Origin: Burkholderiaceae bacterium
Lineage (GTDB): Bacteria; Pseudomonadota; Gammaproteobacteria; Burkholderiales; Burkholderiaceae_A
Length of the DNA: 64,000 nt
Direction: 5' to 3'
Assembly (NCBI GenBank): GCA_038147455.1
Contig: JAYQTQ010000001.1
Coordinates: forward strand, 268,875 to 332,874
How positions within the stretch are numbered: position 1 is the stretch's first letter; each line of letters starts with the position of its first letter. Made by a program: the position numbers and the translations under genes. A model generated the notes under the pieces. It saw only the letters and a program-made list of their open reading frames with translations. It searched no databases and had not been told where the DNA came from. Positions 20,591 through 40,190 of this stretch are shown here, piece by piece.

Positions 20591-20688
20591 TGGCGGAGAG
20601 AGCGGGATTCGAACTGAGCACTTAAACCATTGATTCTAATTAGGATTCTGAATCACTTTTTTGCCGTTACTCACACTATTACTCACAG
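20591..20688. repeat. att-like repeat copy 1 (tRNA-Ser-like 3' core plus conserved arm)
   Basis: TGGCGGAGAGAGCGGGATTCGAAC followed by TGAGCACTTAAACCATTGATTCTAATTAGGATTCTGAATCACTTTTTTGCCGTTACTCACACTATTACTCACA. It starts 18 nt after the sulP stop. Confidence 0.85.
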
Positions 20689-20887
20689 TTTTACCCATGC
20701 TAGATAACGATTCTTCCTTAACTTTCAGATGAATCCTCTCAAATGATTAAAACATTTTCGCAGTCAAACTGCAGAAAATCGAAAGCAAGACAATGTTTTT
20801 GATGAAAAAAATGTAAAAATAAATCGACCGTTCATCTTTTTACATTCTAATTAAAACCATGGGCTTCAAAGATATTTATTAAGTGCA

Positions 20888-22024
20888 ATGATAAATTTTA
20901 AAAGACTTTTCCCTAACTTCAAAAATAAAGAACGAGAAATATACTTATGTCTATCTGGCGGTGGGGTCCAGCTATGGAATTTCATTTGGGGTATTAAATA
21001 CCTGCACGGAATGAACATGTTTAAAAGAATTGATTCAATATCAAGGTATCGGCTGGGGAGCCTTTTCAGGGTTATTTTTTCAAAAATGGCTTATCTTGGC
21101 CAAAAGATCAGTCTTTTTTTAGCGAAACAATTCCTTCGATAAAGGAAACGATCCTATCGGGGATTTGTTAAAAAAATAAAAGGATATTACTTTTGAACCA
21201 AACAATAAACAGTTGGATGAATCGTCAAAATAGACTATCCAGCTGCATTAAAAAGTTTGGGGGATTGGACAAAAAAATGGGAGAACTTCTTTTTCCAAAT
21301 TGATAATCAATACAACTTGTGCTGAAACAGGAACGAGATTTTATTTTTTAGGGAAAGATTTTATCGGATACAGATATGGTAGATTTGATGCGAGTAATAT
21401 TTGTATCGCTGACGCTCTTGCAATGTCAAGTGCTTTTCCCATTTTATATTGGTCCATATGTCCTAAAAAACTAGTGAATTTGACTGGAATTATTCGATGG
21501 ACGAAGTTGATCCAGATGAGGACAATATTCAGGAAAAGTTTGAACAAATACATATTCTCGATGGAGGCATTTATGACAATACGGGTCTAGAAGCTTTTTT
21601 ATCGATTGGAAAAGGCTTTAGGAAAAAAGATTATAAGTGTGGCCTTTTTATCCTCTCAGATGCAAGTGAAGTTCTTAGAGAACAAAATTCCTCAGATTGG
21701 TTAGAATTTTCGAATTCTGGGAGGTCCAAAAAAATTATTGCAAATCAAGTAAGAAGTTTAAGAATGCGGAATTTTCACGGATTTTTAGAGAGAGGAGATA
21801 TTTCTGGATACTATTTACGATTAGGAGACAACTACTTCGACAGACAATTATCTATAGGGTCGTTAAGTACAAGACTAAGTCATGATTCTATTATTAACTC
21901 GAAGGTTGGCAAACAAGTTAGTCAGTTAGAGACTGGACTTCAGTCCCTAACTGAAAAAGAATTCGATGGATTAGTCACTTCATGGCTAGAGCTACTTAAT
22001 CAAAAACAAAGATTGTTTCCATAA
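20888..22024 (+). pseudogene. patatin-like phospholipase, several frameshifts
   Basis: CLSGGGV (glycine-rich oxyanion motif) lies in ORF 20888-21142. The GxSxG region is out of frame. ILDGGIYDNTGLE (catalytic Asp motif) lies in ORF 21497-22024. Confidence 0.75.
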
Positions 22025-23100
22025 TTTGTTTTAAATAAGCTTTTATATTATCACCAACTAATAAATCTAAATTTTGGAAAGTCGTTTCATTGTTATTACT
22101 TATCAACAGCTCATTTTTATCAATTAAAGAGAGTAAAAATTGCAAATAAGAATTTCTTCAAAATGATCTTCTTGCCAAAGTCTAATCTACGAATTAGATA
22201 TTTTTAAATACCTCTTCAGGTCATAATCTATTTTTAAATACTTTTGGCATCTTTCATAATCTTTGAGAACGATTTAAGGTATCGTTTACTTTTATACTCA
22301 ACTATATTCTCTTTAAAAACATTTTATATCAAGTTTATCCATATGACCTCTAGCCATGGATACCTTCCGAGACAAAGTTCGTTAGAGACTCTCCTTTATT
22401 AATACTCTGGATTAAAAAACCAAACACATACTTAAATCTGGAGACTTTTTTTAAAATTTGAAAAAAAAAATTTTCTAACGTGTCTCTTGCTGGATCTATA
22501 GTGCCAATAAATAAAAAATAATTCCAAAAGAACCACTAATAACTGAAAATGATAGGTGTCCATATCGGTACTCCTTTTTTCTCATTTAAATTTAAATGAA
22601 AACAATATGAGTCCAAAATTAGCGAACCATTGATTTTAAAAATTTTTTCAAACAAATTCCTTGTTACTTCTATCTCGCAATAAATAAAAAAATAATTCCA
22701 AAAGAACAACTGATAACTGAAAATCAAGTCCTTATTTCTTTTAAATTTTTTTTAAATGTTTGTACTTAAAGACATCGTTAGGTGTTTTGAAAAGAGACCA
22801 AAATGTTTGGAACAACTGAATGATTCTTGACCATGATGTTCTCCATAATTAGTCATTTTGGTGACAACAATTTAGGACTTAGCCTTTTGAGCTTTCCCTT
22901 AAAAATGAATAAAAATATCACAGTTAATAACCTACTATAAACTCAGGATTCATCTTTTTTAGTAAGAATAAGTTTCAATAATAAAAGCTGGGCGCTAAAG
23001 GAAAGACTCTATTTAATGTACTGAGTTTAAGTAGGAAACTCAGGCAGTGTTGAAACTCATCACTGTTACTCTGAATCATTTGCTATTTGCTAGTAACGAT

Positions 23101-23565
23101 TTACTTTCCTTTACTTTCTACCAAGTCTTCTAAACGTAGGGCATAATTCTCTCGCTCCTCTTTTGTCATTCTTTCGATGTAAGCAATCAGAGATCCTCGT
23201 GCCGAACCCCGTCTCGACCGCGTAAATTCTGCCTGTTCATCTAGAAGATTTTCGAATGCACTCCGGTCAAAGGGGTGTTTTTTTAGGATGTCAACAGCAG
23301 AACGAAAACTAGCATAATTTTGCGCTTTAACCAATTCTCTACCATCTTTGTCTCCTAATATTTCATTTCGAAGTGCCTTTTTGTCTCTGAACTCCAGTGC
23401 TTGCATGTATAGGCGACCAGAAGCGAGGTGATGTACCATTGGGGCATTACCTTTTCGTATCAAAACACCACCTAAAGCACCGATTATCAAAAGGTTCAAA
23501 CCAAGTGATATTACGAATAGCATTTTCCAACGATTTCTCGATTTTGGATTTGTTGATTCTGTCAT
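23101..23565 (-). CDS. membrane-anchored periplasmic stress/metal-sensor-like protein (Spy/ZraP/Metal_resist superfamily)
   Basis: One N-terminal TM, then a helical domain (..KKHPFDRSAFENLLDEQAEF..MTKEERENYALRLE). It is the last gene of the ECF sigma operon. Confidence 0.5.
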   Translation of the reverse strand: MTESTNPKSRNRWKMLFVISLGLNLLIIGALGGVLIRKGNAPMVHHLASGRLYMQALEFRDKKALRNEILGDKDGRELVKAQNYASFRSAVDILKKHPFDRSAFENLLDEQAEFTRSRRGSARGSLIAYIERMTKEERENYALRLEDLVESKGK

Positions 23566-23575
23566 TTTAAGTATC

Positions 23576-23959
23576 CTAAAAAATTTCGTTCATCCCAAAA
23601 AATAATCCAGTGAAGTCTACCTCATGAAAGATATTGATCTGAAAAAAACTTGCTAAAGGTTGGGTCCAATCAGGAGAATAAAAACCAATATAAACTCCTA
23701 CTGCAAGTGATGCCGCAAATCCTACAACTGAAGGAAATCCTGACAACTCTTTTAAACATACAAGAGTGGCATCTAATCTTGGTAAGTCTTGTATTGCATC
23801 ACCTCCACCCCGTGTTTTGTGCGCGTCTTTTAGAATACGTGCCTTAAAAGCTGGAGAAACCTTTGGAGCGGAGGTTTTCGCTGCATCAAAAAAATTAGAA
23901 AGGTCCCCTTTTCCATGAACCGTATACCATACATTTGAGTTTTGCTTGTTTTTAGCCAT
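23576..23959 (-). CDS. putative anti-sigma factor
   Basis: The start overlaps the sigma-factor stop by 8 nt. One predicted TM (FPSVVGFAASLAVGVYIGFY). The call rests on position. Confidence 0.4.
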   Translation of the reverse strand: MAKNKQNSNVWYTVHGKGDLSNFFDAAKTSAPKVSPAFKARILKDAHKTRGGGDAIQDLPRLDATLVCLKELSGFPSVVGFAASLAVGVYIGFYSPDWTQPLASFFQINIFHEVDFTGLFFGMNEIF

Positions 23960-24531
23960 CGCTATATCCTAATTTTGATTTTTGAGTTTGCAAAATTTCT
24001 ATTAACTTACGCTTACCTCGTGCAGTAAGGCTTTCAACTGCTTCAATACTTAACTCCATAATTTCAGCGATTTCAGGATTGGAAAGTTCATCAATATGTC
24101 GCAGCTGAATAGCAAGACGCTGATTTTCTGGCAATATTGACATTGCATCATAAAGAGCCTTTTGACGATATTGCGCATCAATGTTATCAGTTGGCGACTG
24201 AGTTCACATCAGTTACTTCTTGAGCACTACTTAAATTTTCGAGAGTTGCTCGTCGGTAGCGATCTTTACACAAATTATAAACCACGCGATAGAGCCACGT
24301 AGAAACTTGCGCTTTGTCATATTTCCAGTTTGGCGCAATTTTCCATAGTTTCAAAAAAGCCTCTTGCGTCACATCTTCAGCATCCGCAATGTTCCCTAAT
24401 CGATAATAAGCATGCGAATATATTTTCGGCATAAGTCGTTCCGTAAGTTGCTGAGCTGCACTACGATCCCCTTTTGCAAAAGCGACTAACAAAACATTAT
24501 CATCCTGTTTTTTTTTCCAGTTATTAAACAT
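23952..24531 (-). pseudogene. ECF (group 4) sigma-70 factor, one frameshift near 24205
   Basis: Region 2 lies in ORF 24187-24531 (DAEDVTQEAFLKLW, STWLYRVVYNLCKDRYRR). Region 4 lies in ORF 23952-24143 (LPENQRLAIQLRHIDELSNPEIAEIMELSIEAVESLTARGKRKL). Confidence 0.8.
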
Positions 24532-24588
24532 TGAAGCGCCTTAAACAACTCTTGATTAGAGTAATAAACAAATGTGTGAATCAAGCAG

Positions 24589-25053
24589 CTATCTTGTTAA
24601 TAGAAATCGCTCCATCGCAAGATTTTTTTTTATTCGTTGAACTTCATCTTTACTTATGTATCCATCAGCATCCTCATCCACTCGATCGAACATTTTACTC
24701 AAGTTTTTAGCAAGCTGGCTTTTTTTTAGTTCTACAAAACTTACACTGCCATCGCCATTTGAATCTAATTTTCTGATCATTCGTTTTACAGAAAATTCAG
24801 AGCGCCTGATGTGTTGCTGCATTAATTCTTCTGCACTCAACTTTTTATCACCATTCAAATCTATAGACTTAACGACCATCTGTCTTTGCTTCCTGATTTC
24901 ATCTTTTGATACTTTCCCATCATCATTGATGTCTAAATCTTCAAAGTCCAGCATACCAATCATTTTTATCCCCTCAGATGTTTTTGCAGTTATCGTGGTT
25001 CCTATAGTAAGTGCAAACAACAATACAACTGAAAATTTTAATTGATTTGACAT
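24589..25053 (-). CDS. secreted four-EF-hand calcium-binding protein
   Basis: Signal peptide plus four DxDxDG-type loops (DINDDGKVSKDE, DLNGDKKLSAEE, DSNGDGSVSFVE, DEDADGYISKDE). Confidence 0.8.
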   Translation of the reverse strand: MSNQLKFSVVLLFALTIGTTITAKTSEGIKMIGMLDFEDLDINDDGKVSKDEIRKQRQMVVKSIDLNGDKKLSAEELMQQHIRRSEFSVKRMIRKLDSNGDGSVSFVELKKSQLAKNLSKMFDRVDEDADGYISKDEVQRIKKNLAMERFLLTR

Positions 25054-25273
25054 ATCTAACTCCTTATTACGTTCTTAATTATCATTAATTTTGTTAAAGA
25101 CATCTGTTAAACGCATGAGGGTTGTTTTTCCGTCGCAACTTAGAAAAGTTACACTACTGCATTTTCTTGCAATTAACTAATTCGGGATTTTTTGGAACAA
25201 GGATATCGAACAGAAACAAATTTGATACGTCCGTAAGCTATTGATTTAAATTGGAAAATTTGCTTATTTAACC

Positions 25274-25342
25274 TGGCGGAGAGAGCGGGATTCGAACTGA
25301 GCACTTAACTCATTGATTCTATTTACTATTCTGAATCACTTT
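25274..25342. repeat. att-like repeat copy 2
   Basis: TGGCGGAGAGAGCGGGATTCGAACTGAGCACTTAACTCATTGATTCTATTTACTATTCTGAATCACTT. The arm is cut short where the truncated hydrolase ORF ends. Confidence 0.85.
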
Positions 25343-25883
25343 ATTGCGCCAATGTCCAATCAAGATAGGCAACTGGATCAGCCCCGATCATCCTCTCCGG
25401 CAATGGAAAGGGTTGAGCCAGAAACGTCCAATGATAAGCGGTAATAGCCAAATCAGCCGTCCAACTGGCCCAAAAATCTGCTGTCGGAACAATTTCAATA
25501 ATTCCCAATTTATTAATCCGTCCCGGATGATCTAGCGCAAAACGATAGGCAACGCGCGCGCCTCTATCATGACCCAAAACATCTGCACGTTGTATAGCAA
25601 GTGCGTTGAGCAAATCCGCAATATCTTTTGCCATTGTACGTTTCGAATAGGTAATATTCCCAGATTCATTGGGTGGAGCTTCACTCTCACCATAGCCTCG
25701 TAAATCGGGTATGATAACATCGCGACTCGTTGCCAATCGGGGAGCGACTCTCTCCCAACACATGTGATTTTGCGGAAAACCGTGGAGCAGAAGTAGAGGT
25801 TTCCCTTGACCGCCGCGGTGCACAGATAGGGCTACGCCATTGCAGGTAACCGTGAATTTTCTAAAACCTTTAATCATGTCCAA
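25341..25883 (-). pseudogene. alpha/beta hydrolase (haloacetate dehalogenase / epoxide hydrolase-like), C-terminally truncated
   Basis: LLLHGFPQNHMCWERVAP, DLRGYGES and GHDRGARVAYRFALDHP match the N-terminal ~180 aa of a family that is normally ~290-300 aa. The ORF stops at the edge of repeat copy 2. Confidence 0.7.
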
Positions 25884-26164
25884 ACCTTAGGGGGTTGGTT
25901 ATAGAAAAAAGAAAATTGATTTGTAGTACTATTTTAAACCCTTGTCTATCGATGCGCCAATTATGAACAAATTACCGGGTTTAATAAAATAGTTAACAGT
26001 CACTAAATGAAAAACATATTTTTTTGATATTTGTAACTTTATCCTCTACGAGTATTTTCTGTATTTTCAAATAAAATACTTTCTTTGGTAAGTCACTGTA
26101 TTAGGTGTTAGCATTTTGGGGTTCTATTTGTTAATTTTTACCAGTAGATTTATTTTTGGTTTTT

Positions 26165-26560
26165 TAATTGAATGAAAAAAGTTATTGTCATAATCCTACT
26201 TACCTATTCCATTAGTGGATTTGCAGTTAAATGGGAAAAAATTACCAATGGCTATGATGGGAATTCAATATACATTGATCTTGATAGTATAGAAAAAAAG
26301 AAAGCCGTGTTTATTACTCGAACTTGATTGACTTTCTAGAACCTAAGCAAAAAAGTTATTCAGTTGTTAGTAAATTTAAGGTTGATTGTGGAGAGGAACA
26401 AATGAGTTGGTTAAGCACAACTTATTTTAGCCAACAAATGGGTAAAGGGGAAATTACATCCACATCTACCGTTAAACAAATTCGACTTCCACAAACAGAC
26501 ACACTTGCACGTGCGGAGTTATTATTCGTTTGTAACTGGTCTGCATTATCTAGTCAGTAA
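26165..26560 (+). pseudogene. surface-adhesin-E-like small secreted protein, one frameshift
   Basis: ATG at 26165 gives MKKVIVIILLTYSISGFAVKWEKITNGYDGNSIYIDLDSIEKKKAVF.., then shifts into ORF 26324-26560 (..SKFKVDCGEEQMSWLSTTYFSQQMGKGEI..LLFVC). The pattern resembles the Adhesin_E family. Confidence 0.55.
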
Positions 26561-26579
26561 TCGTTAACTGGTTGAGGGT

Positions 26580-27308
26580 ATGAAAAAACATTTTAGTAAT
26601 GAAGAAAAAGCAATCGATATACATCTTTACACTGCTCCAACAATGAACGGTTGGAAGCCAGTTATATTGTTGGAAGAATTGGGTGTAAATTATAAAGTTA
26701 CACATGTTGATTTCTCAAAAAATGAACAAAGAAATCCGCACTATTTAAAGCTAAATCCTAATGGTCGTATTCCTACTATTGTAGATGTTTCAAATAATGA
26801 TTTTGTAGTTTTTGAGTCAGGCGCTATTCTCTGGTACTTAGCTGAAAAATACAATAAGTTTCTTCCTTCCACCTTAGAACAAAAGAGTCAAACTTTACAG
26901 TGGTTAATGTTTCAGGTTGGTGGAATTGGTCCAATGATGGGTCAAGCGATGTTTTTTCAACGAATAGCAGCTAGAAACGGTAATTATAATCCTTCAGCCA
27001 TAAAACGTTATGTAGATGAAAGTCGCCGTCTTTTGGAGGTATTGAATAAACGGTTAGAGGGTCGCAATTACTTAGTTGATGAGCAATATACCATAGCTGA
27101 CATAGCTACTTATCCCTGGGCGAGAGCTTATTTTTGGGCTAACGTTTCAATTGATGGACTACACCATTTAAAACTATGGTTGGAACGCATTGATTCTCGA
27201 GAGAAAACGAGTAAGGCACTCGAAATTCCCAGACCGTTTTGGGCATTTTTTGGTAAAGGCAATATTGATAAGCAAGAGAAAGAAAATGCTGATTGGTTCA
27301 AAGGGTAA
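26580..27308 (+). CDS. Nu-class glutathione S-transferase (YghU/YfcG-like)
   Basis: Intact 242-aa ORF. The thioredoxin-like N-domain has NGWKPVILLEELGV, LKLNPNGRIPTIVD and VFESGAILWYLAEKY. Confidence 0.85.
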   Translation: MKKHFSNEEKAIDIHLYTAPTMNGWKPVILLEELGVNYKVTHVDFSKNEQRNPHYLKLNPNGRIPTIVDVSNNDFVVFESGAILWYLAEKYNKFLPSTLEQKSQTLQWLMFQVGGIGPMMGQAMFFQRIAARNGNYNPSAIKRYVDESRRLLEVLNKRLEGRNYLVDEQYTIADIATYPWARAYFWANVSIDGLHHLKLWLERIDSREKTSKALEIPRPFWAFFGKGNIDKQEKENADWFKG

Positions 27309-27412
27309 TCTTTTCTAGAACTAATACACAATTTCGGGAATTAAAAAATATCTACAGTTATATTTAGTTATCTACCGTATTAATTTTTTATCGAGAAATC
27401 AGTAAGTTTGCC

Positions 27413-27512
27413 TGGCGGAGAGAGCGGGATTCGAACTGAGCACATTGATTCTATTTAGGATTTGAATCACTTTTTCTATCACACTGTTACTCACAATTCT
27501 GAATCACTTTTT
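27413..27512. repeat. att-like repeat copy 3
   Basis: TGGCGGAGAGAGCGGGATTCGAACTGAGCACATTGATTCTATTTAGGATTTGAATCACTTTTTCTATCACACTGTTACTCACAATTCTGAATCACTTTTT. The GAATCAC sub-repeat occurs twice. Confidence 0.85.
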
Positions 27513-27549
27513 GTATAAAAGCGTTAGCTAGACCTAATAGTTGTTACAT

Positions 27550-28770
27550 TTATTTGCTAACGCTATTTTCACTCCATGGTTCAAAGGGTCGGGTAATGTT
27601 GCCCAGTAATCTTTTCCTCGTAAAACTTCCTCTTCGCTTAAAAATACAATCATCGAGTGTTTTAATCATCGCCTCTTTGTTTAGCCCCTGCCCTATGAAT
27701 ACCAATTCTTGACGCATATCTCCGAATGGTTCGACCCAACTTTCTTTGATAGAAGATAGATACTCTTCATCTACTGGCCAATCTTTCTTTGGAGTAGCTT
27801 TCCAAAACATTCCTGCAAAACCGTGTCTTGCTATTCCGCCAGCCTGATTCCATTGTCCAGCAAACTGCGGTCGTGTAGCTAACCAGAAATACCCTTTCGA
27901 ACGAATAAGCTTTCCAAATTTTTCCGTTCCATGAAGAAAAGCATAAAACTTCTCTGGGTGAAAGGGTCTACGTGCTTCATACACAAAACTACTAATTCCA
28001 TATTCTTCCGTCTCAGGAATATGTTCCCCGCGCATTTCTTTAAGCCAACCAGGAGCTTGTTGCGCACGCTCAAAATCAAATAAGCCTGTATTTAACACCT
28101 CATCAATTGCTATTTTTCCGTGCTTTGCTGAAATAATTTTTGCGTGAGTATTCAATGTTTTTATTACGGCAATTAGCCTCTTTAAATCAGTCTCTTGAAT
28201 GAGATCAGTCTTACTTACAACTATGAGATCAGCAAACTCAACCTGCTCAACAAGTAAATCTGCAACACTGCGTTCATCTTCTTCTCCGAGCGATTCATTT
28301 GTTTCTTGTAACAACTTTGCCTCATCAAAATCTTTCAGAAAATTCACTGCATCGACAACGGTTACCATTGTATCTAGTTTGGCTACATCTGATAAAGAAA
28401 CACCATTTTCGTCCGCAAATGTAAATGTTTCGGCTACAGGTAAAGGTTCCGAAATCCCTGTAGATTCAATCACTAAATAATCAAAACGACCTTCTTGTGC
28501 TAGTTTCGTGACCTCTATCAACAGGTCCTCCCTGAGAGTGCAACAAATACAACCATTGCTCATTTCTACGAGCTTTTCTTCACTTCGACTAAGAGAAACA
28601 TTGTTATTAACTACTTGCGAATCAATATTGATTTCACTCATATCATTAACAATTACTGCAACTTTTTTGTTTTCTCTGTTGTTAAGAATATGACTTAATA
28701 CCGTGGTTTTCCAGCGCCTAAAAACCCAGAGAGAACCGTCACTGGTAACTTGTTTGTAATTGCAGACAAC
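27550..28770 (-). pseudogene. CobW/ZigA-type zinc metallochaperone GTPase, one frameshift in a 4-nt homopolymer run at 28707-28710
   Basis: The 363-aa ORF carries CICC, ESTGISEP and the CobW C-terminal domain. The P-loop GFLGAGK(TT)VLSHIL lies upstream in a shifted frame, starting at TTG 28770 behind GGGAG. Confidence 0.8.
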
Positions 28771-28788
28771 TCACACTCCCGTTTATAA

Positions 28789-28805
28789 ATGATATATTAT
28801 ATCAT
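28789..28805. promoter_or_regulatory. Zur-box-like perfect palindrome in the divergent zigA / DUF1826 intergenic region
   Basis: ATGATATA-T-TATATCAT (8-1-8 perfect palindrome), flanked as AAATGATATATTATATCATAATT. It is similar to the gammaproteobacterial Zur consensus as I recall it (GAAATGTTATAnTATAACATTTC). Confidence 0.55.
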
Positions 28806-28815
28806 AATTCAAATA

Positions 28816-29511: not shown

Positions 29512-29718
29512 TCGCAGCATTTACGAAATGAATTTTAAACATTAAATTTGTGGTTACCATCAAGTTAATGAGAAGTAAATTTTTTTAGGAACAAAAAATT
29601 TTAGCAAAGAGGAGAAAATGATGCCCACTAAGATAATAAAGCAAAAGCGTTAAATGATATCGCAAATGAACTAGAACCACCCGAGGAAGAAATTCAAAAG
29701 CCGTCAAAAGAAGAGCTA

Positions 29719-29916: not shown

Positions 29917-29960
29917 ACAGCTAGGTTGTGCTAATTTTTGCTCTTTTAAAATTCTAAGTT

Positions 29961-29994: not shown

Positions 29995-30143
29995 AATGTT
30001 TCGGTTTAATGCGAATTGTTTTTAGTTTCGTACCCCTTTTTTTCAATAAAAAAATATTTGTTTTGTCAGATAAAAGTGATTTAAGAAAGAAGTATGGGAC
30101 CCCTAGATATCTATAAATGAAGATAGATTACTATGTACATTCT

Positions 30144-30273
30144 TGGCGGAGAGAGATTCTATTTGGAATTCGAACTGCCGTTACTCACTATTTAACTCAT
30201 TGATTTTATTTACTATTCTGAATCACAATCTTTAATTTGATTAATTGGAATCCAACTCAACGTTTTACTCACA
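30144..30273. repeat. att-like repeat copy 4 (internally rearranged)
   Basis: TGGCGGAGAGAG / ATTCTATTTGG / AATTCGAACTG / CCGTTACTCAC / TATTTAACTCATTGATTTTATTTACTATTCTGAATCAC ... GTTTTACTCACA. It has the same blocks as the other copies in scrambled order. Confidence 0.7.
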
Positions 30274-31020: not shown

Positions 31021-31041
31021 TTCAGTAAACTTAATCTTCCT

Positions 31042-31287
31042 TCATATCGAGATGAAAAAATCTCCATTTTCAAGCTTTACTGAGGCTCTTACATCTATCA
31101 TTAACCGGCCATTATCACTTACCCCATTATTCCAATCAGCAGTCTGACCAACAATTTTACCTTTTGTACCGTCTGTCATTATTACATAACCGGTTAGCGG
31201 CCAAATTGCTCTACCTTCACCAATTTTTTCTACCAACCCTACTTTTTTCTCATCCCACTGAAGGACATATGTCATTACATGTGTCAA
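31042..31287 (-). pseudogene. truncated secreted protein fragment (possibly DUF3237-like)
   Basis: ..GKIVGQTADWNNGVSDNGRLMIDVRASVKLENGDFFISI. A signal-peptide-like MNHLPYIVSFF.. lies upstream at about 31375 in another frame. Confidence 0.3.
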
Positions 31288-31476
31288 TGAAGTCTTTTTT
31301 ATTTCTTTTGAAACTGCAGTACTAATGATTTAAACAAGAAGAAAAAAACTAACAATATAAGGAAGATGGTTCATAATGCTCCAAAAATATTTTGAATGAC
31401 TGAATCCTACTACAATGATTATTTGGATGAAAGGAACTTAATAGTAACTAAAAATGTTTCCCCGCATCATATTTTT

Positions 31477-32166
31477 TTAGAACTTTTCCATAAATGTTCT
31501 AAGTTCAATCTCGTGCGTCCATGCTTGCCTGGGTTGCTGTAACACTGACATATATGACTTAGCTATAGCCTCAGAGGTTAGTTTTTCGGAATCATAAAGT
31601 CGAACTCCTTTCTCTACGGCGCCATCAATAACAAAATGTGCTACGTGAATACCCAACGGACTAAGTTCTCTGTATAGACTCTGTGCCAATCCTCTTATTG
31701 CGAACTTTCCCATAGCAAAAATGGATGATCCCGGAAATCCTTTGATACTTGCTGTGGCCCCAGTGAAAAAAATAGATCCCTGTTTAGCAGGAATCATTCG
31801 CTTTGAAGCTTCCTGAGCCACTGTAAAAGCACCATTAATATTAACTTTAAATGAATCTGCAGCCTGAATCCTATCAATCTCATGAACTTTTCCGCGGACC
31901 CTACTCCCACAGTTATATAAGACCAAATCTGGAGTGCCAAAATTCGTGTCAAAGTAATCAAATAAATGGAGAATACTGTCTTCCTTCGAGCAATCCGTCT
32001 TAAAAATACTCGCTGAGATTTTTGCCGAAAGGCTTTTCAACTTGTCCGTATTTCTACAAGCTAAACACACGGAATATCCTTCATCGGCTAATTCTGTTGC
32101 GAAGGCTCCACTAATACCGGGTCCTGCTCCTATGATTAAGGCTGTTTTGCTCATTTTTTCATACAC
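31477..32166 (-). CDS. short-chain dehydrogenase/reductase (SDR) family oxidoreductase
   Basis: Intact 229-aa ORF with ALIIGAGPGISGAFA (cofactor-binding Gly motif), NCGS and an active-site region ..GKFAIRGLAQSL. Confidence 0.85.
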   Translation of the reverse strand: MYEKMSKTALIIGAGPGISGAFATELADEGYSVCLACRNTDKLKSLSAKISASIFKTDCSKEDSILHLFDYFDTNFGTPDLVLYNCGSRVRGKVHEIDRIQAADSFKVNINGAFTVAQEASKRMIPAKQGSIFFTGATASIKGFPGSSIFAMGKFAIRGLAQSLYRELSPLGIHVAHFVIDGAVEKGVRLYDSEKLTSEAIAKSYMSVLQQPRQAWTHEIELRTFMEKF

Positions 32167-32453
32167 CTTACCCAGGAATCAGCTTCGTATTCAGCTCGCA
32201 ATTTCTTTTTAGTATTTAATAGTTTCCTGTCATAGAATTCATAATATTCCTTCTGATAAAGAAATTTATATTTTTTGTAGTTTCTACTTTTTTCCATATA
32301 TTTTTTTTTCTTACTACCCTCTTCCTTCCACGGTGTGAGTTCCCAAACTCTCATATGAGCATCAACACACTGCTCTTGAGGACTTTTGACAATTGAATTT
32401 GCTGAAACATTAATTGATAACAGGGAAAGAAAAACAGGAATAAGATTCTTCAT
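32151..32453 (-). CDS. hypothetical secreted lysine-rich protein
   Basis: Signal peptide MKNLIPVFLSLLSINVSA. Overlaps the SDR start by 16 nt. Confidence 0.4.
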   Translation of the reverse strand: MKNLIPVFLSLLSINVSANSIVKSPQEQCVDAHMRVWELTPWKEEGSKKKKYMEKSRNYKKYKFLYQKEYYEFYDRKLLNTKKKLRAEYEADSWVRCMKK

Positions 32454-32608
32454 AACCTCTCATCTGTCTTCTTGAGAAAATTTGAGACTGACTCCCCCTT
32501 ATCCTTAGCACTCCCTAGTGGGACAATAGGTGTCTTTTTCGTAAGGAAGTTAAACTGCGTTTTCTGTTGGTTATCTTTGTTTTTTTTATTACTTTCCATT
32601 GTAAAACT

Positions 32609-32790
32609 TTAACTTATACCGCCTACGATTAACCTCATCTCTTTTTTACCCTCTACGTAATCTGCCCACCATTGCAATTATTTCAATCCGCTGCTTTAAG
32701 TATTCTGCATGATTATATGCGTGAGCGACAGCGTCTTTTGGATTGTTTGCTAGTTGTTTTTCTTTTGAAGTAGAAAAAGGCGACTAACAA
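32609..32790 (-). pseudogene. 3' remnant of a P4-type tyrosine integrase
   Basis: My translation gives ..KDAVAHAYNHAEYLKQRIEII, then after a 1-nt shift QWWADYVEGKKE... This matches the conserved C-terminal AYNRAxYLxERrxMMQxWADYL tail of P4-like integrases. No catalytic core remains. Confidence 0.5.
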
Positions 32791-32983
32791 TAAAACTTCA
32801 CATTGGTACTTTATGTATGAAACAGCACCATCAGAAATAAGGGGCCCATAGTCCTTTAGGGCTGGATGTTAGATTATTTTAGCTATTTTGGTACAAAGAT
32901 ATACAGAAATAAATTTCGGAAAATCTTATTCGAAACTGCTAGGTTAGAAAACTTAGTCTACAAAAAACGAAAAGTACTGAAAT

Positions 32984-35233
32984 TTAATTTCTCATATTTT
33001 TAAGTTCTAATTTGATAGATAACAGCTCGTCTCTAAGCTTTCTAGATTCCTCTTTTAGCATCTTAGACTCTTCTTTTAGTTTTTCGATTTCTGTTAGTTC
33101 TTTCTTTGTGGGTTTGGTAACTTTGGTTACTTTGGTCTGTTCTTTTCCTTCTTCCTTTCTTCCTTTCACAGAATATATCCGTATATCTCGATTGATTCCC
33201 TTCATCTTTATCGCTTCTTTTTGCTCTACCTCCACCAAATCCTGTACATGAGCATACGTCTCATAACTCATATACAACCCATTAACCTCCGCCACACTCT
33301 CCAGCCTCGCTGCTACATTCACCTCTCCACCGATAATGGTGTAAGTCAGTCTCTGATCGCTACCAAAATTGCCTACATTACAATACCCAGTATTCACACC
33401 CATCCTGATCTCAAAGGGCTCTGCAAAACCTTCTTGAGCCCACTTCTCTCTCAACTCCACCATTCTCTCTTGCATCTCCAATGCCATCTCTATACAAGTC
33501 CTGGCATCTTCTTTCTCCCCTCTTGTCTCGGGATCCCCAAAAAACACCATCATGGAATCGCCAATATACTTATCAATCGTAGCCCCATGTTTCACAGCAA
33601 TCTTTGTCATCTCGGAAAAATACTCATTCAAATATTTTGTTAAATCCTCTGGCTGCATATTCTCTGAGGTTGAAGTGAAGTTCTTTATATCACTAAAGAA
33701 AACCGTTAACTTTCTTCTTCGAGTTGTAATCTTTGTGTCAACCTTTCCTGCAAACAATGCCTCATGAATCTGTGGTGGAATATACTTCGCAAGCTGATGA
33801 GAAATCCACTCCATCATCGTACTTTTTTCTCAACTCACTGGTTCGCTCCTGAACTGTCTCTTCCAAAACCACTTTCTGCTTCTCAGCTTCATCTGCCTGC
33901 TTTTGAATATTCTCATTTAACTCATCTTGCAAAAACTTCGTACGCTTAGCCAAAACCAAAGACATCACAATCGCCACTATAAATAACCCGGCCGATTGAA
34001 TCACAACATGGTTGTTTAAAAATGACTGTAACCCGCTATCAGGTAGATAAGCAAAGGGAGATTGAAATCCAAAAACACCTAATAAATGAAAAATTCTAGC
34101 TATGAGGTATGGCAGAAAACCGATTATGAAGAATTTAGCCAATACTATCCCTTTTGATATCTTTGAACTGAACAATAAAATAGAACAGCTAAAATAAAAA
34201 AAGATGAATAAACTAACGGGTACCATATTACTCGCAAGTCGAATTCAAAATTAAATGCTCTGAAGGCAAAAAAATGCAGAACGTACCAAACTAGGTATAT
34301 GTTAGTGAATATATAAGCGACTTGATGATTTTCTTTCAAGCCAATAAACTGCCTTGCAAAAATCACAAACATCATTGCTTCAAAATATCCGCTAAATACA
34401 GCAATAGTTGTAGCAAAGGAAACAGAGTTAAAAAGTGGATTATATTGGATAGAAGAAAAAATAAACTCTAATAATCTAGAACCATCATGATGAAATTGAC
34501 CAATTACAAAAATAATGGAACTCAGAAGCCAAAGAACGAAATATAGTGTTGTTTTATCTCTGATTTGATAATACGAATAAATAGTGAACACTAGTAAACC
34601 TAAAAGTGAGCCTAAGATAACTCCTTCTAACCATAGACCAAATCTTCTATTTTCTTGATAATTATCCGCTTGATAAAAAAGTAAGTTGCTCTCTATAAAG
34701 TGAGCCTTACTCGGCATTTGGAAATTGTAATATAAATCAACAGATTCTCCTGCTACAGCTTTAAAGGTAAAATTTGTCGTACTCGAAGGTTGAAAATTAG
34801 TATTCGAAGGATTCGTTGATGACAAATCATTTGAATTAGTTCCTGGTCTATTTTTTAAGACCTGAGTTTTTTTGTTTGATATCAGAAAAAATTGACTAGT
34901 TAAATGATGACGCCCAGGAATGACAGTGATCTCTCTAGTCATTTGTGTAATATTTTTAATCTGTATTTTCTTTGTGTAAAACTTAAAGGGCTTGAACCCA
35001 ATGAAGTTGGCTTGCGGAATAAAAACTATATCTTGCAAGCTATTGATATTGGTCAATTCATCCCCAGAATTTGAATAGTAGAGACTTTCCTCTGGGATTG
35101 AAAAGCTAATTTTCGTTTGATCGTCAATAACGAAAGTGTTTTTCTCAGAACTTCCTAAAGCATCTTTAGTATTCAAAAAAACTGAGAGGAAAATAAAAGG
35201 AAAAAGCTTTAATATAATTTGTGAAGCTGACAT
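32984..35233 (-). pseudogene. 7TMR-DISM receptor fused to class III adenylate/guanylate cyclase, copy B (two frame breaks)
   Basis: Three collinear ORFs: 34145-35233 (signal peptide, extracellular domain, 7TM), 33762-34226 (last TMs plus coiled coil) and 32984-33817 (cyclase: FFSDIKNFTSTSE, KYIGDSMMVFFGDP, GGEVNVAARLES, and a Lys/Glu-rich tail). Confidence 0.85.
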
Positions 35234-35406
35234 TCCTCTATTTTATGTATTTATACAGCACTACAACAATACTATTCCAATATAATCGCCCTATCCATAA
35301 CGCCCTAGGTTATTTAGGTTCCTAGGCTGGTACAAAGATATGGTAAGAATTGAATCTGAAATTGTTAACTAATAATTTCTAGATGAAAAATCAGTGAAAT
35401 TTGACC

Positions 35407-35497
35407 TGGCGGAGAGGCAAGTTCGAACTGAGCACTTTACTCATTGATTCTATTAAATTCTGAATCCTTTTTTTGATTTTTCACACTGTTACTCATA
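35407..35497. repeat. att-like repeat copy 5 (core degenerate)
   Basis: TGGCGGAGAGGCAAGTTCGAACTGAGCACTTTACTCATTGATTCTATTAAATTCTGAATCCTTTTTTTGATTTTTCACACTGTTACTCATA. Confidence 0.8.
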
Positions 35498-35684
35498 GTT
35501 TAAATCCAGAAACATACACTAGTACCCTATACTAGGAATCATTTGACCTTAATCGGCTAGTTTAATTTAGTTCTCCCTCTGATTGTTTATTTTTTTCCTG
35601 TAACTCCCTAATCTCTTCGGTACAAAGGAAACTCATGAACTTATAAAAACAAAAAATAATAAAAAAGTAAAGGTTTTTCACCAA

Positions 35685-36240
35685 CTAAATAATTATAAGT
35701 ACCGTGAAAAAGTATTGGATATATGATTGCTTTAAAAAATTGCATGACCTGAATTTCGAACACATGCATTCCAAGAAAACAACCCATAATAATCCCACAG
35801 GATGCATGCATTGGTAGTAGCAGTTAAAGCACTTACAATTGCAATCTGCAAGGTGGGATATTGTCAAAATAAACATAAACATACTCATAATTTTCAAAAG
35901 TTGCAAAACCTAAAGAAATTAATGTCCTGTATACGACAGCATCCATTGGCTCATTAAATTCTGACTTAGGCCTAATAAAAACAGATAATGCTAAGAATTT
36001 TAATGACTCCTCTGTAAGTCCAGCTAAAAAAGAAAGTGAATGCGGGTCATCTGTTGACCAGATTAATAGATTATTCAATAAGCCAGCAGGAAAACAAATC
36101 AGACACCCTAAAATAAAAGCCTCAACAATTAATTTTACAGGCTCTCTAAAACTTATCTGATCTAATTATAAAAAGAAGAATTGCCAGGGATGGAATAAAA
36201 GTGAATTCGATAGCAAACACACCTTCAGCTCCACTGATTT
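35685..36240 (-). pseudogene. PrsW-like intramembrane metalloprotease, frameshifted
   Basis: ORF 35833-36078 has GLTEESLKFLAL (EExxK) and SLGFATFENYEY (FAxxEN). Flanking TM segments are in other frames. Confidence 0.5.
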
Positions 36241-36259
36241 ATTAATCGTAGTTTAATTT

Positions 36260-36667
36260 TCAATTTGACTCAAAACATTTTGATAACATATACATATCTC
36301 CTGTAGTGTCTATAAGAGTCCAGCTTGTTTGTAAATTCTCTAAATCAAATTGATGCAACTCATAGCCATCATCAGAACCAGTCCGCAAACCTAAGACAAC
36401 TTTTCCAGCGTTCCTTACATCAATTATTTTCATGTCAATATCTCCAGTAGTGTTATAAGTGTCATTACGCCAAGATATTTTTATTTCTGATTTAGATGAA
36501 TCGATTAATACGAAAGTTGTTAATTTGTTAACGGCTTCGTGGGACTCATATGTATCCCCCGTCCTATATATACTAAAAACCTTATCACTGGTGCAAACAA
36601 GTCGTACAGGATCAGCATGAATACTACCCCATATACTTAAACCGACAAAAAGAAATAACCCTCTCAT
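36260..36667 (-). CDS. small secreted two-Cys protein (family member 2)
   Basis: Signal peptide MRGLFLFVGLSIWGSIHA, then DPVRLVCTS.. and a C-terminal ..SKCFESN. Lies 17 nt downstream of the cyclase gene. Confidence 0.5.
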   Translation of the reverse strand: MRGLFLFVGLSIWGSIHADPVRLVCTSDKVFSIYRTGDTYESHEAVNKLTTFVLIDSSKSEIKISWRNDTYNTTGDIDMKIIDVRNAGKVVLGLRTGSDDGYELHQFDLENLQTSWTLIDTTGDMYMLSKCFESN

Positions 36668-36683
36668 AATAAGATTATAAGTT

Positions 36684-37344
36684 CTAAGACTCTAAGAAAT
36701 ACATTTTCAGAGAACCTTTCTTTGTTGTAAGAATATCCCCTCTTTCCACTGAATCAACATATTTTTGAATACGAAAATGAGTCGTTTCTGAAACATTAAT
36801 TTTTCCAGGCTCAGAATTTTGCTCCATTAAAGAAGCAGTGTTTACAGTATCGCCCCATATATCAAAAGTAAACTTGTCCTCACCCACGACACCGCATATT
36901 ACAGGGCCAGAATGAATCCCGAATCTCGCTTCCCAGGTAGGCATTTTCAATTTAGAACGTTGGATATTTGTCTTATTTAAATAAGACAGCATTTCTTTAG
37001 CAGCTTTACACAAACGATTTGCATGATCCTTTTTTTCATCTAGAATTCCGGCGACACACATATAAGAATCGCCTATAGTTTTAATCTTTTTCTATTTTAT
37101 TTTGCCTACATATTTCATCGAATTTGCAAAATATTTGATGCAATAATTCTACAAGATTTTTAGGCGATGACTTTTCAGTAAGTTGAGTAAATCCTACAAA
37201 ATCGGTAAACAAAACACTACATTCATCTATATATTTCGGCTCTACCCGTTTTTTTTCCTGTAATTCGATTGCAATGTTTACAGGCAAAACCTTCTTCATG
37301 ATCTGCTTAATATTATTTTTTTCAACTTCTAACTCTTTAGTCAA
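36684..37344 (-). pseudogene. class III adenylate/guanylate cyclase catalytic domain, one frameshift in a 5-nt homopolymer run at 37087-37091
   Basis: ORF 37081-37344 (VLFTDFVGFTQLTE) and ORF 36684-37061 (..GDSYMCVAGI after the shift, FGIHSGPVICGVVG, FDIWGDTVNTASLME). Confidence 0.75.
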
Positions 37345-37380
37345 TTTTTCCCGGACAATAAGTGAGTCTTTTAACTTCGA

Positions 37381-37878
37381 TTAATGTCCTCTTAATTCAA
37401 GCTGGGTCATCACCTGTTTTGACAATTTTTTAAGTGCCTCTTGCTGATTTACAGATATTTCCCTTTTCTTGAAATCTACCGAACAAATGGTTCCTACCGC
37501 CTGCCCATTAGGGGTGATCAAAGGCGCTCCAGCGTAAAAACGAATATTAGGTTCAGCTTCAACTAATGGATTGGTACGAAATCTATCATCCTGGGAAAGA
37601 TCTGGTACGCACAATAGGTTACCTGAACTTATCACAGTATTACAGATTGCTATGTCCCTAGGTGTTTCAGTCACATCATCCGGTAGTCCATACTTTGACT
37701 TGAACCACTGTCTATCTGCATCCATAAATTCAATAAAAGAGACTGGGCAACCTAAAATCTCTGCAGCTAACTCTGTAATATCATCGAAACAAACCTCTGG
37801 TGCCGTATCAAGCACTTCATAAGATTTTAATGCTTCTATTCTCAAATCCTCATCTGGGGGAACTTGAAATTTACTCAT
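37381..37878 (-). CDS. GAF-domain protein (sensor module upstream of the cyclase domain)
   Basis: 165-aa ORF with a GAF-like pattern (..CNTVISSGNLLCVPD..DDRF..NPLV..IRFYAGAPLITPNGQAVGTICSVD). It ends at an in-frame TAA just before the cyclase coiled coil. Confidence 0.7.
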   Translation of the reverse strand: MSKFQVPPDEDLRIEALKSYEVLDTAPEVCFDDITELAAEILGCPVSFIEFMDADRQWFKSKYGLPDDVTETPRDIAICNTVISSGNLLCVPDLSQDDRFRTNPLVEAEPNIRFYAGAPLITPNGQAVGTICSVDFKKREISVNQQEALKKLSKQVMTQLELRGH

Positions 37879-38226
37879 AATTGAACATTCTTTCTATTTT
37901 TTAATCATCCAAAAGATTAAAAACATTTTTCATAACCCTTAAAATTGTACAATGCCATCCGCTTCCAATGTATTTAAACATAAATTAACTAGTGGATTTC
38001 TTTCTAAGTAAGATATGTCTCTAGAAATTCAAACTAAGCAAATTACTTATCAATTAAAATTAATCTGCACGACTTTTGTACAAGTATATCTTTCTAAACT
38101 ATTTATATTTCCAGCAAAGGAATACTACTTCTCTTAAGTCACTATTTGGTAACTAATTGCTATTCCTTTTTCTATTACACATACTTTGGTTCATAAACTT
38201 GAATAAATGGTAAAAATGAATGGGCC

Positions 38227-39061
38227 ATGTCCAAAATAGAAAACTTTAACTTGAAAGATGGAACCTATATCCGATATAGGGTTACAGGAAACGGACCTCC
38301 GCTATTATTGCTACACACTTTCAGAAATAGGTTGGAATACTCTGATCTTTTGGTTCAAGAATTAATAGACGACTACTCAATTTATACTCTTGATTTGCCA
38401 GGCTTTGGAGACTCTCCAATAAACATGGAAGCAAATTATGATCAAGAATACTTCACTATTGCTATTACAGAATTCATTACTAGGTTTGGATTTGTCAGAC
38501 GTGACTATTGCTGGAGAATCTATCGGTGGAATTTTGCCCATAACAGTTTCTCTTAAAATTCCTAGCAGGATAAAAAAACTACTTAGCTTTAATCCTTACG
38601 ATTACGATACTAAATTTGCAGAAGGCATCCGCCGTGGAAACTTTTTTGCAAATTTTATCCTTTTTCATGTTGGACTTCCATTAATAGGAAGTTTTTTTTC
38701 TATGCTCGAAAATAAATTTATTTTAAAAAATATTCTTTCAGGTGGATTCGTCGATAAATCGAAACTGCCTAGCGATTATCTAAATCTTCTAACTTCAACC
38801 ATCAAAAAAGAGGCTATACATATCATTTTATAAACGTACTATCAAACTTTCAAACGTGGATCAATTGTAAAAATATTTACGAGGCCGTCACTCATCCTAC
38901 AGTCTTAGTCTACGGAGAAGCTGACTGGTCAACATCTGAGGAAAGGTTGGACTCGCAAATTAAATTAAATTTAGATTCGTATCACACAATAAAAAAATGT
39001 GGGCACTTCTCATTTTGGAGCAGCCCAAAAAAAAGTTGCGGAAATTATTAAGCAATCGTAA
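38227..39061 (+). pseudogene. alpha/beta hydrolase, at least two frameshifts
   Basis: LLLLHTF..LDLPGFGDS lies in ORF 38227-38556. The nucleophile region GESIGG lies in ORF 38438-38833. The C-terminal CGHFS(H)..PKKVAEIIKQS is in a third frame. Confidence 0.75.
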
Positions 39062-39084
39062 CAATTCGCCCTCAATGTACTTAC

Positions 39085-39164
39085 TGGCGGAAGAGCGGGA
39101 TTCGAACTGAGCACTCCATTAACTACCCATTGATTCTATTTATCTTATTCTGAATCACTTTTTT
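39085..39164. repeat. att-like repeat copy 6 (GAAGAG core variant)
   Basis: TGGCGGAAGAGCGGGATTCGAACTGAGCACTCCATTAACTACCCATTGATTCTATTTATCTTATTCTGAATCACTTTTTT. Confidence 0.85.
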
Positions 39165-39380
39165 AAGCAAAAAGGTTATTCAGTTGTTAGTAGTTGCAAG
39201 GTTGATTGTGGGGAGGAACAAATGAGTTGGTTAAGCACAACTTATTTTAGCCAACAAATGGGTAAAGGGGAAATTGTCTCCAAATCTACCGTTAAACAGA
39301 TTCGACTTCCACAAACAGATACAATTGCACGTGCGGAATTATTATTCGTTTGTAACTGGTCTACATTATCTAGTCCGTGA
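39165..39380 (+). pseudogene. 3' fragment of a second adhesin-E-like gene
   Basis: About 215 nt aligning with 26349-26560 at roughly nine-tenths identity by eye. It starts mid-gene directly at the end of repeat copy 6. Confidence 0.6.
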
Positions 39381-39558
39381 TATCTCTACTCAGATAAGCA
39401 TTCACTCTAAAACAATTTTTCTCTCCAGTTAAAATAAAAAATAGTTACGTTAGAGTAACCTCTTGCCCTGTGATAGTGGTTTTTATATTCTTATACCATC
39501 GATAATTAACCATGCCTTAGATAGACTTATACTTTTTGAAAAATTGAAGGAGTAAAAA

Positions 39559-40122
39559 ATGAAGATATCCAGAATTGGTTTAACATCAGTTTTTGTAAGT
39601 TCTATAATCTTCTGCTCCGGGTACCATTTCTGCCGCTGACCCGAAAATAGAAATGCTCCTAAATTAGAATACTTTGGCTCGTTAACATATCGAAACATCG
39701 GGAAGTTAAGAATTTTCACGAAATTTTGTTGCCAATCTCGCAAGTGGAACTTTAACTCTTGCTAACGGTGATATTGGAAAAGTTTCAGCTCCGTGTGCTG
39801 ATTTTGGAAATGCTCAAAAAGAACTCTGGTTTGATCTCGATGTAAGATGCACTTTTACTATGGATGATGGCTCACATTTATATATATTTTCTACGGGGGA
39901 AAAATGATCATGGATGACAAAGCCACGCAACTTATGGATGAAGGTAAGCCATGGAAGCCTAAAAGCGGTATTGATTATTGGATAAATGCTCCGCTAATAA
40001 GAACATCAAGCCAAAAATATGATTACATGAATTACATACAACTCATCGGCAAAGGAGTTATAGCAGATTTGTCAGCCGGATATGTGACGTATGATCTCTA
40101 TAAAGTACTTTATTCAAAATAA
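39559..40122 (+). pseudogene. hypothetical secreted protein, frameshifted
   Basis: AAGGAG RBS and ATG at 39559 (MKISRIGLTSVFVSSIIF..), continuing through shifted frames into ORF 39904-40122. The antisense ORF 39483-39743 is probably spurious. Confidence 0.35.
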
Positions 40123-40171
40123 AGGTTAAAAATTTAACCCCTTTATAAATTTTTGTTCTTATATGTTCTTA

Positions 40172-40190
40172 TGGCGGAAGAGCGGGATTC
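40172..40190. repeat. att-like repeat copy 7 (core only)
   Basis: TGGCGGAAGAGCGGGATTC with no arm. The integrase ATG lies about 85 nt to the right. Confidence 0.7.

Follow-up and report, generated by a model that had tools for sequence, protein, structure and literature searches.

Sequential insertion of gene cassettes at a tRNA gene is the defining feature of additive flexible genomic islands (fGIs), as described in Alteromonas (Lopez-Perez et al. 2013, PMC3698932), and in fGI-2 of 'Ca. Methylopumilus' the terminal 20 bp of tRNA-Lys recur as island markers (Layoun et al. 2024, PMC10872708). Prochlorococcus islands harbor tandem tycheposons separated by partial tRNAs, along with fragmented integrases (Hackl et al., bioRxiv 10.1101/2020.12.28.424599; Cell 2023). 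Here we analyze a 64-kb stretch of DNA, referred to at its full length as the window, from a Burkholderiaceae bacterium (GenBank assembly GCA_038147455.1, contig JAYQTQ010000001.1, forward-strand positions 268,875 to 332,874), in which seven copies of a tRNA-Ser 3' end (the core), extended by conserved arms, bound small gene modules. Comparison with related contigs (identified below by L-numbers) makes it very probable that a region extending at least from 18.2 kb to 48.17 kb is an additive island of the tandem-accretion type, akin to tycheposons and to cis-mobilizable elements (CIMEs), that has grown from the 3' end of tRNA-Ser(GGA).

The island shares with additive fGIs a variable number of cassettes inserted sequentially at one tRNA, repeats of the tRNA 3' end, a cargo of transport, metal and stress genes, and a content that varies among close strains. 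It differs from them in its target, tRNA-Ser(GGA), in the truncation of the anchoring tRNA, in the extension of the repeats by conserved arms of ~75 nt on the right and ~100 nt on the left, and in its host, an uncultured low-GC marine betaproteobacterium. Like tycheposons, it combines tyrosine recombinase elements at a specific tRNA with tandem elements that have nothing but a partial tRNA between them, integrase fragments and further partial tRNAs within the island, adaptive cargo, and a setting in marine oligotrophs. In contrast, the seven tycheposon targets in Prochlorococcus include tRNA-Ser(tga) and not tRNA-Ser(GGA), and no replication or packaging hallmark genes of tycheposons were found in the window by Pfam (a weak negative over the frame-broken 41.4-48.2 kb), a VapE/DUF5906 gene being present only in a neighboring cassette of the related contig L007.

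Tandem accretion involving CIMEs is reportedly also found around ICESt1 and ICESt3 of Streptococcus thermophilus, where the composite structure is said to be excisable using either its outer or its inner attachment (att) sites. The modules of the window resemble CIMEs in being flanked by att sites and lacking a recombinase of their own while lying beside an integrase-bearing element at one chromosomal target site (attB); modules 1-6 of the window and those of contigs L001-L006 are all att-flanked and carry neither recombinase nor transfer genes. Whereas the ICESt cases comprise one or two CIMEs at the 3' end of the protein-coding gene fda, the window holds at least 6-8 serial cassettes at a tRNA, has no conjugation genes, and contains cassettes that are shared and permuted across a natural population. 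Sequential cassette insertion at a tRNA is already known, and what stands out here is the long, regular series of integrase-less cassettes with conserved arms, together with direct evidence, from within a population, that a single gene has been shuffled.

An exact search revealed the 24-nt core TGGCGGAGAGAGCGGGATTCGAAC at positions 20591, 25274 and 27413 (expected 0 times in shuffled sequences) and the variant TGGCGGAAGAGCGGGATTC at 39085 and 40172 (expected 0.02 times), with degenerate copies at 30144 (scrambled) and 35407 (TGGCGGAGAGGCAAGTTCGAAC). All seven copies, three exact and four variant, are on the plus strand, confirming the seven co-oriented copies reported in an initial annotation made from the sequence alone. 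A profile search with nhmmer recovered six core-plus-arm units (20568-20688, 25245-25365, 27386-27495, 30131-30226, 35378-35497 and 39059-39170) and a core-only copy at 40171-40190, and no further convincing unit copy was found by nhmmer in the 64 kb, the remaining window matches having E >= 0.19. The right arm extends ~75 nt after the core (TGAGCAC..CATTGATTCTATTTAnnATTCTGAATCACTTTTTTGSC-GTTACTCACACTGTTACTCACA), and alignment revealed a left arm of ~100 nt before several cores (..TTTTGGTACAAAGATATGGTACAAAA..TAAGCTnnTGATTTnAAnT.GAAAA..TTTTTnnCC), so the conserved unit reaches beyond what had been described. Arm motifs recurring within single copies (repeat families D10 and D19) and the division of the left flanks into two families were both borne out, and the left flank of unit 3 is homologous to L006. 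Five of the 15 window matches to the integration host factor (IHF) consensus WATCAANNNNTTR are located within units, and a match at 18236-18248 lies within a right-arm-only remnant; the arm repeats and IHF-like sites are candidate protein-binding sites, predicted from their sequence. The cores at 39085 and 40172, which flank the 1.1-kb DUF3237 module, share a 1-nt deletion (GGAAGAG for GGAGAGAG), which may record a single integration event or else an error that recurs in a GA repeat.

The core is, exactly, the 3' end of tRNA-Ser(GGA) in related bacteria, in agreement with its initial assignment to a tRNA-Ser. In a metagenome scan, the core plus four T-stem bases (28 nt) matched more than 120 tRNA-Ser loci, and ARAGORN identified tRNA-Ser(gga) in the loci checked (L035, L056, L046, L024, L095 and L026). 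ARAGORN found no tRNA and Rfam no RNA family over the window. However, 30 nt near its 48.1-kb position, where the right edge of the island had been predicted, are 96.7-100% identical to the 5' end of many tRNA-Ser loci, sit five bases from the stop codon of the acetyl-CoA synthetase gene acs, and contain an acceptor strand that pairs with the repeated core. The predicted edge is thus upheld, and the claim that no intact tRNA exists in the window, this edge included, stands in that none is intact, although the gene is truncated there and not merely absent. On the Tara Oceans scaffold L035 (35.5% GC), acs follows an intact tRNA-Ser(GGA) in an arrangement collinear with window positions 48138-50721, and the tRNA-acs neighborhood is found also in L056, L046, L024 and L095. 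The tRNA-Ser(GGA) is intact at the acs locus in L035 and L056, whereas the window gene at the island end is reduced to 30 nt in the expected position and orientation. The 5' remnant beside acs, taken with the intact tRNA-acs arrangement of the relatives, therefore anchors the island at tRNA-Ser(GGA) downstream of acs. This synteny was obtained from the tRNA pattern scan; a search for Acs homologues as a route to syntenic relatives was uninformative, the best match being only 63% identical. In L056 (CEUQ01088867.1, 35% GC), a left arm with ATGTGGTACGAAATGTGGTATAG lies ahead of the intact tRNA-Ser(GGA), a tRNA-Ser(tga) is 1.7 kb away and acs ~1 kb away, and this contig may represent an occupied but intact version of the window's tRNA-Ser(GGA) locus. 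The features of the island are collected in Table 1; the two arm-only remnants, the tRNA 5' part and the left arm were missed in the initial annotation.

Table 1. Units, arm remnants, integrase features and flanking genes of the island, in window coordinates.
Feature	Position	Strand	Description
Right-arm-only remnant	18236..18270	+	..TATCAAAAGATTG (on minus strand)/GTTACCCACACTGTTACTCACA; 1 mismatch to distal arm motif; weak nhmmer match
sulP	19047..20573	+	SulP/STAS sulfate permease (Pfam); one-gene cassette
Unit 1	20591..20690	+	24-nt core 20591-20614 and 75-nt right arm ending GTTACTCACACTATTACTCACA
Unit 2	25186..25347	+	Left arm with degenerate GGAACAAGGATATCGAACAGAAA repeats; IHF-like site 25234-25246
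Unit 2 (continued)	core 25274-25297	+	Right arm stops before GTTACTCACA repeats
Unit 3	27386..27526	+	Left flank of AAATCAGT family; core 27413-27436; right arm duplicates TGAATCACTTTTT internally
Unit 4	30131..30226	+	Scrambled, degenerate; core start TGGCGGAGAGAG at 30144, then rearranged arm pieces; nhmmer E = 5e-12
Second integrase, C-terminal remnant	32640..32790	-	..AVAHAYNHAEYLKQRIEIIAMVGRL..; from six-frame translation
Left-arm-only remnant	32859..32922	+	TTTTGGTACAAAGATATACAGAAATAAATTT..; matches left arms of L003, L005 and L007; GGTACAAA at 32890
Unit 5	35326..35504	+	Left arm GGTACAAAGATATGGTAAGAA .. GAAAAATCAGTGAAATTTGACC; degenerate core 35407-35428; right arm
Unit 6	39085..39164	+	Core TGGCGGAAGAGCGGGATTCGAAC with 1-nt deletion; right arm stops before GTTACTCACA repeats
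Core 7	40172..40190	+	19-nt copy; tRNA-distal att site of integrase-bearing module
Integrase-proximal arm	40191..40273	+	Direct repeats GGTACAAAAATATGGTACAAAG at 40244 and 40257; candidate arm-type integrase binding sites
Tyrosine integrase	40274..41474	+	DUF6538 N-terminal domain and Phage_integrase catalytic domain (Pfam on stitched protein); several frameshifts
Remainder of integrase-bearing, tRNA-proximal module	41475..48137	+	No long open reading frames, no recognizable families
tRNA-Ser(GGA), 5' 30 nt	48138..48167	-	GGAGAGGTGGATGAGTGGTTTAAGTCGCAC; acceptor 5' strand, D arm, anticodon stem start
acs	48173..50152	-	Acetyl-CoA synthetase; chromosomal flank; two frameshifts here; intact 663 aa in L035

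A scan of a genome collection for the core plus arm returned only six stretches in four assemblies, three of which are marine low-GC betaproteobacterial assemblies (MED-G174, AG-913-B20 and AH-736-P17) and the fourth a 6.8-kb contig binned as Rhodobiaceae; public records label the relatives of the window Burkholderiaceae or Betaproteobacteria. By nhmmer, the units in these stretches number 2-4 per 8 kb and are clustered and co-oriented, as they are in the window, and are thus not scattered at unrelated sites. The Rhodobiaceae contig (L004; DJZB01000001.1, 6830 nt, UBA6963 bin) has both ends inside a unit, with a 21-nt core overlap, and carries a low-GC methyltransferase cassette followed by an RND/czc-type efflux operon of 47% GC; possible explanations are capture of a foreign cassette, a circular molecule, and an assembly that is chimeric or bounded by repeats.

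Modules of the window recur in another order in L001, L002 and L005. The CobW/DUF1826 module (27.4-30.1 kb) is 90% identical in L001, which also has the 7TM-cyclase of 33.0-35.5 kb, while L002 harbors the GAF-cyclase plus hydrolase (36.7-39.2 kb) and DUF3237 (39.5-40.2 kb) modules in reversed mutual order, followed by a phasin gene whose counterpart in the window is at 14.6-15.3 kb. Turnover inside one population is illustrated by the sulfate permease gene sulP. On its right in the window lie unit 1 and a sigma-factor/metal module. Three relatives from Tara/JGI marine metagenomes (L142, L143 and L144) share 96-97% identity with the window over the sulP region; L142 reads unit, sulP, unit, methyltransferase, unit and laminin-G protein, and L143 and L144 read SDR gene of window module 4, further sequence, unit, sulP, degenerate unit and other cargo, giving sulP three different right neighbors across these sequences. 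Because it lies between units with changing neighbors, sulP is itself a cassette and not a border of the island; we had entertained it as the border, which these units on both its sides rule out. In SulP relatives at a greater distance (84-90% identical), the gene is followed by neither a unit nor a tRNA. The right-arm-only remnant near 18.24 kb likewise implies that the island reaches left of the sulP cassette, and not, as first annotated, that it starts at 20591. Comparison of the sulP-acs interval accordingly yielded close relatives that have the units with different cassettes around sulP, and not identical genes without the repeats.

Identity profiles locate the breakpoints of this reshuffling. 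Since some fixed-window profiles over the junctions were noisy from indels, only clean ones were used. Read from left to right, the identity between the window and L142 is 98.5-100% before the core, reaches 100% within it, falls to 88% along the right arm and is random thereafter, and the converse pattern is observed between L142 and L002. The position of the drop places the breakpoint at the core, with the right arm accompanying the cargo to its right, the outcome expected of site-specific recombination. Close strains thus differ in island content by entire modules. Modules 1-6 lack an integrase, and none was found across 48 kb of L001-L006, which contain 14 unit matches. The integrase-less, att-bounded modules of the window measure 1.1-5 kb and hold 1-5 genes; over the window and related loci together, ~20 modules lack an integrase (modules 1-6 and ~15 related ones). 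A direct repeat of 218 nt (92% identical) is present in two modules, at 26344-26561 and 39164-39381, and matches an Adhesin_E-like open reading frame (ORF) of L007 and an ORF of L005, so that its copies are probably fragments of one lipoprotein gene family. An exact-protein look-up of one window ORF, which is N-terminally truncated, returned no record. Outside the array, positions 3697-5400 hold a cyclase gene paralogous to the 7TM-DISM adenylate/guanylate cyclase in module 4, with ~50-58% amino-acid identity to the L001 copy; its location among accessory-type genes suggests that the left 18 kb may be an older, eroded part of the island.

The array had been thought to end at an integrase gene. 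Instead, this gene, which begins 84 nt past core 7, is the first gene of the module nearest the tRNA. Its intact homologue P0001 (403 aa) is 83% identical to the window integrase and lies on L007, where a left arm, core and GGTACAAAAATATGGTACAAAG-bearing arm precede the gene; homology with L007 begins exactly at core 7. The layout of the integrase-proximal arm is also found in L007, L018, L020 and the circular contigs L146-148. Compared with NCBIfam, P0001 matched no model at cutoff, and its sub-threshold matches include Xer-type recombinases and a combined XerA/integron-integrase model. Viral contigs yielded 0 matches when scanned for the unit, for the distal arm of the unit and for the arm of the integrase, and integrase relatives in IMG/VR are at most 44% identical over the best segment and mostly 22-34%. 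In the remainder of the module, Pfam searches of ten of the longest plus-strand stop-free segments between 41.4 and 48.2 kb and blastn against plasmids returned nothing, the Pfam negative being a weak one in view of the many frame breaks there. In L007, the cassette that adjoins the integrase junction on its left encodes a full-length type II Cas9 (positions 2078-5260, minus strand; TIGR01865, 643 bits), beside which are an SLFN/AlbA_2 gene and the VapE/DUF5906 gene mentioned above, a defense cargo in a similar array.

A sister integrase, 51% identical to that of the window and likewise of the DUF6538 type, occurs in both an integrated and a circular form. The integrated form, L018, consists of a core fragment, a GTGGTACAAATTTGTGGTACAAA arm, the integrase, ~9 kb of restriction-type cargo and a left arm, and ends in an intact tRNA-Ser(cga) on the minus strand, which is the geometry deduced for the window. 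The circular form is represented by three Logan contigs from three sequencing runs (L146, L147 and L148), each 6166 nt long and overlapping at its ends by 30 nt. Apart from their circular permutation the three are 100% identical, and the permutation and overlaps indicate a circle of 6136 bp. Its element-borne attachment site (attP) comprises a left arm (TAGTACAAAACTGTAGTACAAGA, then TAAGTACTTGATTTAATTGAAA..), a 20-nt core and a right arm (..GTGGTACAAATTTGTGGTACAAATTG), followed by the integrase. The circle, which also bears a Rap1a-like gene, may represent an island in excised form or, possibly, one that replicates. Homology of the window's left arms to the left arm of this attP and the matches to the IHF consensus make the window junctions attP-like in the ordinary lambda sense, supporting the original proposal of arm-core-arm junctions left by repeated integration at one tRNA-Ser 3' end.

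The second integrase remnant, also reported initially near 32.6-32.8 kb, was corroborated as a C-terminal tail on the minus strand, which we take to be P4-type from its likeness to the tails of such integrases; tblastn with the P4-like integrase of L020 did not retrieve it. Contig L020 carries a tandem pair in which a DUF6538-integrase element is followed by a 60-nt tRNA-Ser 3' fragment reaching the anticodon arm and then by a P4-type integrase (Arm-DNA-bind_3; 5902-7454). This longer fragment implies that a second integrase family uses a longer stretch of tRNA-Ser, in tandem with a DUF6538 element, and the pair would fit a P4-type C-terminal remnant in the window. The nearby left-arm-only remnant marks an eroded junction that divides module 4 in two.

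We propose that elements bearing an attP would recombine with the 3' end of tRNA-Ser(GGA), the attP having a 19-24-nt copy of the tRNA end between its left and right arms, and the catalyst being a lambda-type tyrosine integrase whose DUF6538 domain would bind the arms. Each new insertion would displace the older ones from the tRNA and add one core copy, with the consequence that the core at every internal junction would follow the older module's left arm and precede the newer module's right arm. The module at 40172-48137, nearest the tRNA, still encodes an integrase, and behind it lie integrase-less cassettes that, like CIMEs or integron cassettes, would be gained, lost and re-ordered between close strains at the core. 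The cassettes presumably travel as circles, and the resident integrase presumably acts on them in trans. Continuing mobility of the cassettes would be in keeping with the uniform conserved arms, the abundance of integrase-less modules, the permuted orders and the turnover within the population.

Several observations weigh against this proposal. At 48.1 kb, the tRNA lacks its 3' two-thirds, from the anticodon loop through the variable arm to the T arm, and neither a left arm nor a tRNA 3' part was found when looked for there; the expected right end of the integrase module is thus absent, meaning that its proximal junction is not preserved and that attB is destroyed in this sequence. The integrase reading frame is broken in the window, and the circular form is known only from the relative with the 51% identical integrase, neither a circle nor an empty site having been seen for any window cassette. 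Several cassettes, sulP included, have no recognizable left arm. The right arms of the cassettes bear GTTACTCACA repeats, which resemble the GTTACACA repeats beside another integrase clade (L008/L009), whereas the arm of the resident integrase bears GGTACAAA, a mismatch by which trans-service by that integrase is not established. Finally, repeats of ~100 nt that are 80-95% identical could also support RecA-dependent rearrangement.

The broken integrase frame has to be read together with the state of the window as a whole. Genes across its full length are split by 1-nt indels, including acs outside the island; examples are those at 48173-50152 (acs), 32984-35233, 36260-37878 and 40274-41474. 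In a comparison of 36.6-39.2 kb with L002, most indels are in homopolymer runs, and relatives have intact genes (a 751-aa cyclase, a 397-aa GAF-cyclase and a 663-aa Acs). Homopolymer indels and intact relatives suggest sequencing error, and the window sequence probably carries uncorrected long-read errors, which makes pseudogene calls from it unreliable. The broken integrase may therefore be intact in the real genome, and the decay of elements postulated in the initial annotation was overstated.

It is conceivable that the modules are inert scars, that is, that they once bore integrases which have since been deleted, that the junctions are dead att remnants, and that the differences between strains come solely from homologous recombination of the ~100-nt repeats and from whole elements integrating afresh. 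The second integrase remnant and the arm-only remnants show that erosion happens, as do the degenerate state of units 4 and 5 and the truncation of the target tRNA in pointing the same way, and the repeats are long and similar enough for RecA-dependent recombination. However, the ~20 modules include none with an integrase, and the right arm is ~80-95% conserved to about one end point across genomes, beyond which the cargo diverges completely; this common end point argues against independent deletions, which should end at differing points. Deletion alone also cannot yield the permuted cassette order between genomes, and the breakpoints fall at the core. We consider this explanation rather unlikely.

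A dedicated integron-like platform, in which integrase-less cassettes with one ~100-125-nt site would be the normal mobile unit and a chromosomal integrase would insert and excise them at the core, also appears improbable to us. As in integrons, serial small cassettes with one recombination site each adjoin a tyrosine recombinase, directly so in both the window and L007, and turn over fast, with rapid exchange of neighbors inside one population; one-gene cassettes (sulP, methyltransferase, DUF3237 and cyclase) carry a uniform unit at one end. Yet the recombinase is not IntI-like, having a DUF6538 domain and matching no integron-integrase model at threshold, and it belongs to an ordinary self-mobile element that is circular and integrated in relatives. 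The sites, unlike folded attC hairpins, are double-stranded lambda-type att sites with core, arm repeats and IHF-like sites, and the units form no attC-like hairpins on folding (z-scores -1.2 to +0.2) and lack covariation. In addition, the genes are on both strands, presumably with their own promoters, and arm types differ between the cassettes and the resident integrase. A generic dispersed repeat (a repetitive extragenic palindrome or miniature inverted-repeat transposable element) or a small structured RNA gene resembling a tRNA end, for which the short, intergenic and multi-copy nature of the unit might speak, can be set aside with near certainty, since the copies cluster with a single orientation in one island, in the window as in relatives, and match a real tRNA, the core pairing with the tRNA 5' remnant, while unit alignments and folds have no terminal inverted repeats, Rfam gives no match, RNAalifold yields -2.9 kcal/mol with 0 covarying pairs, the DNA folds no better than shuffles, and the units contain no consistent promoter or terminator signal.

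An additive island grown from tRNA-Ser(GGA) bears on the active question of how streamlined ocean bacteria without plasmids or conjugation gain and shuffle accessory genes. The locus is unusually legible in that the target tRNA, its displaced halves and the att arms can be identified, a sister element is found both as a circle and integrated, and one single-gene cassette, sulP, occurs in three contexts within one population. For the question of mobilization in trans, it yields defined sites (the core, the GGTACAAA and GTTACTCACA repeats and the IHF-like sites) and a DUF6538-type integrase family. We tentatively raise the possibility, doubtful as it is at present, that the integrase-less modules, far from being debris, are the currency of an integron-like gene capture built from lambda-type parts, in which DUF6538 integrases acting in trans insert, excise and re-order them at tRNA-Ser(GGA). 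If this were true, cassettes of one to few genes, each with an att site of ~100-125 nt composed of the tRNA-Ser core, IHF-like sites and arm repeats, would circulate in a marine betaproteobacterial population.

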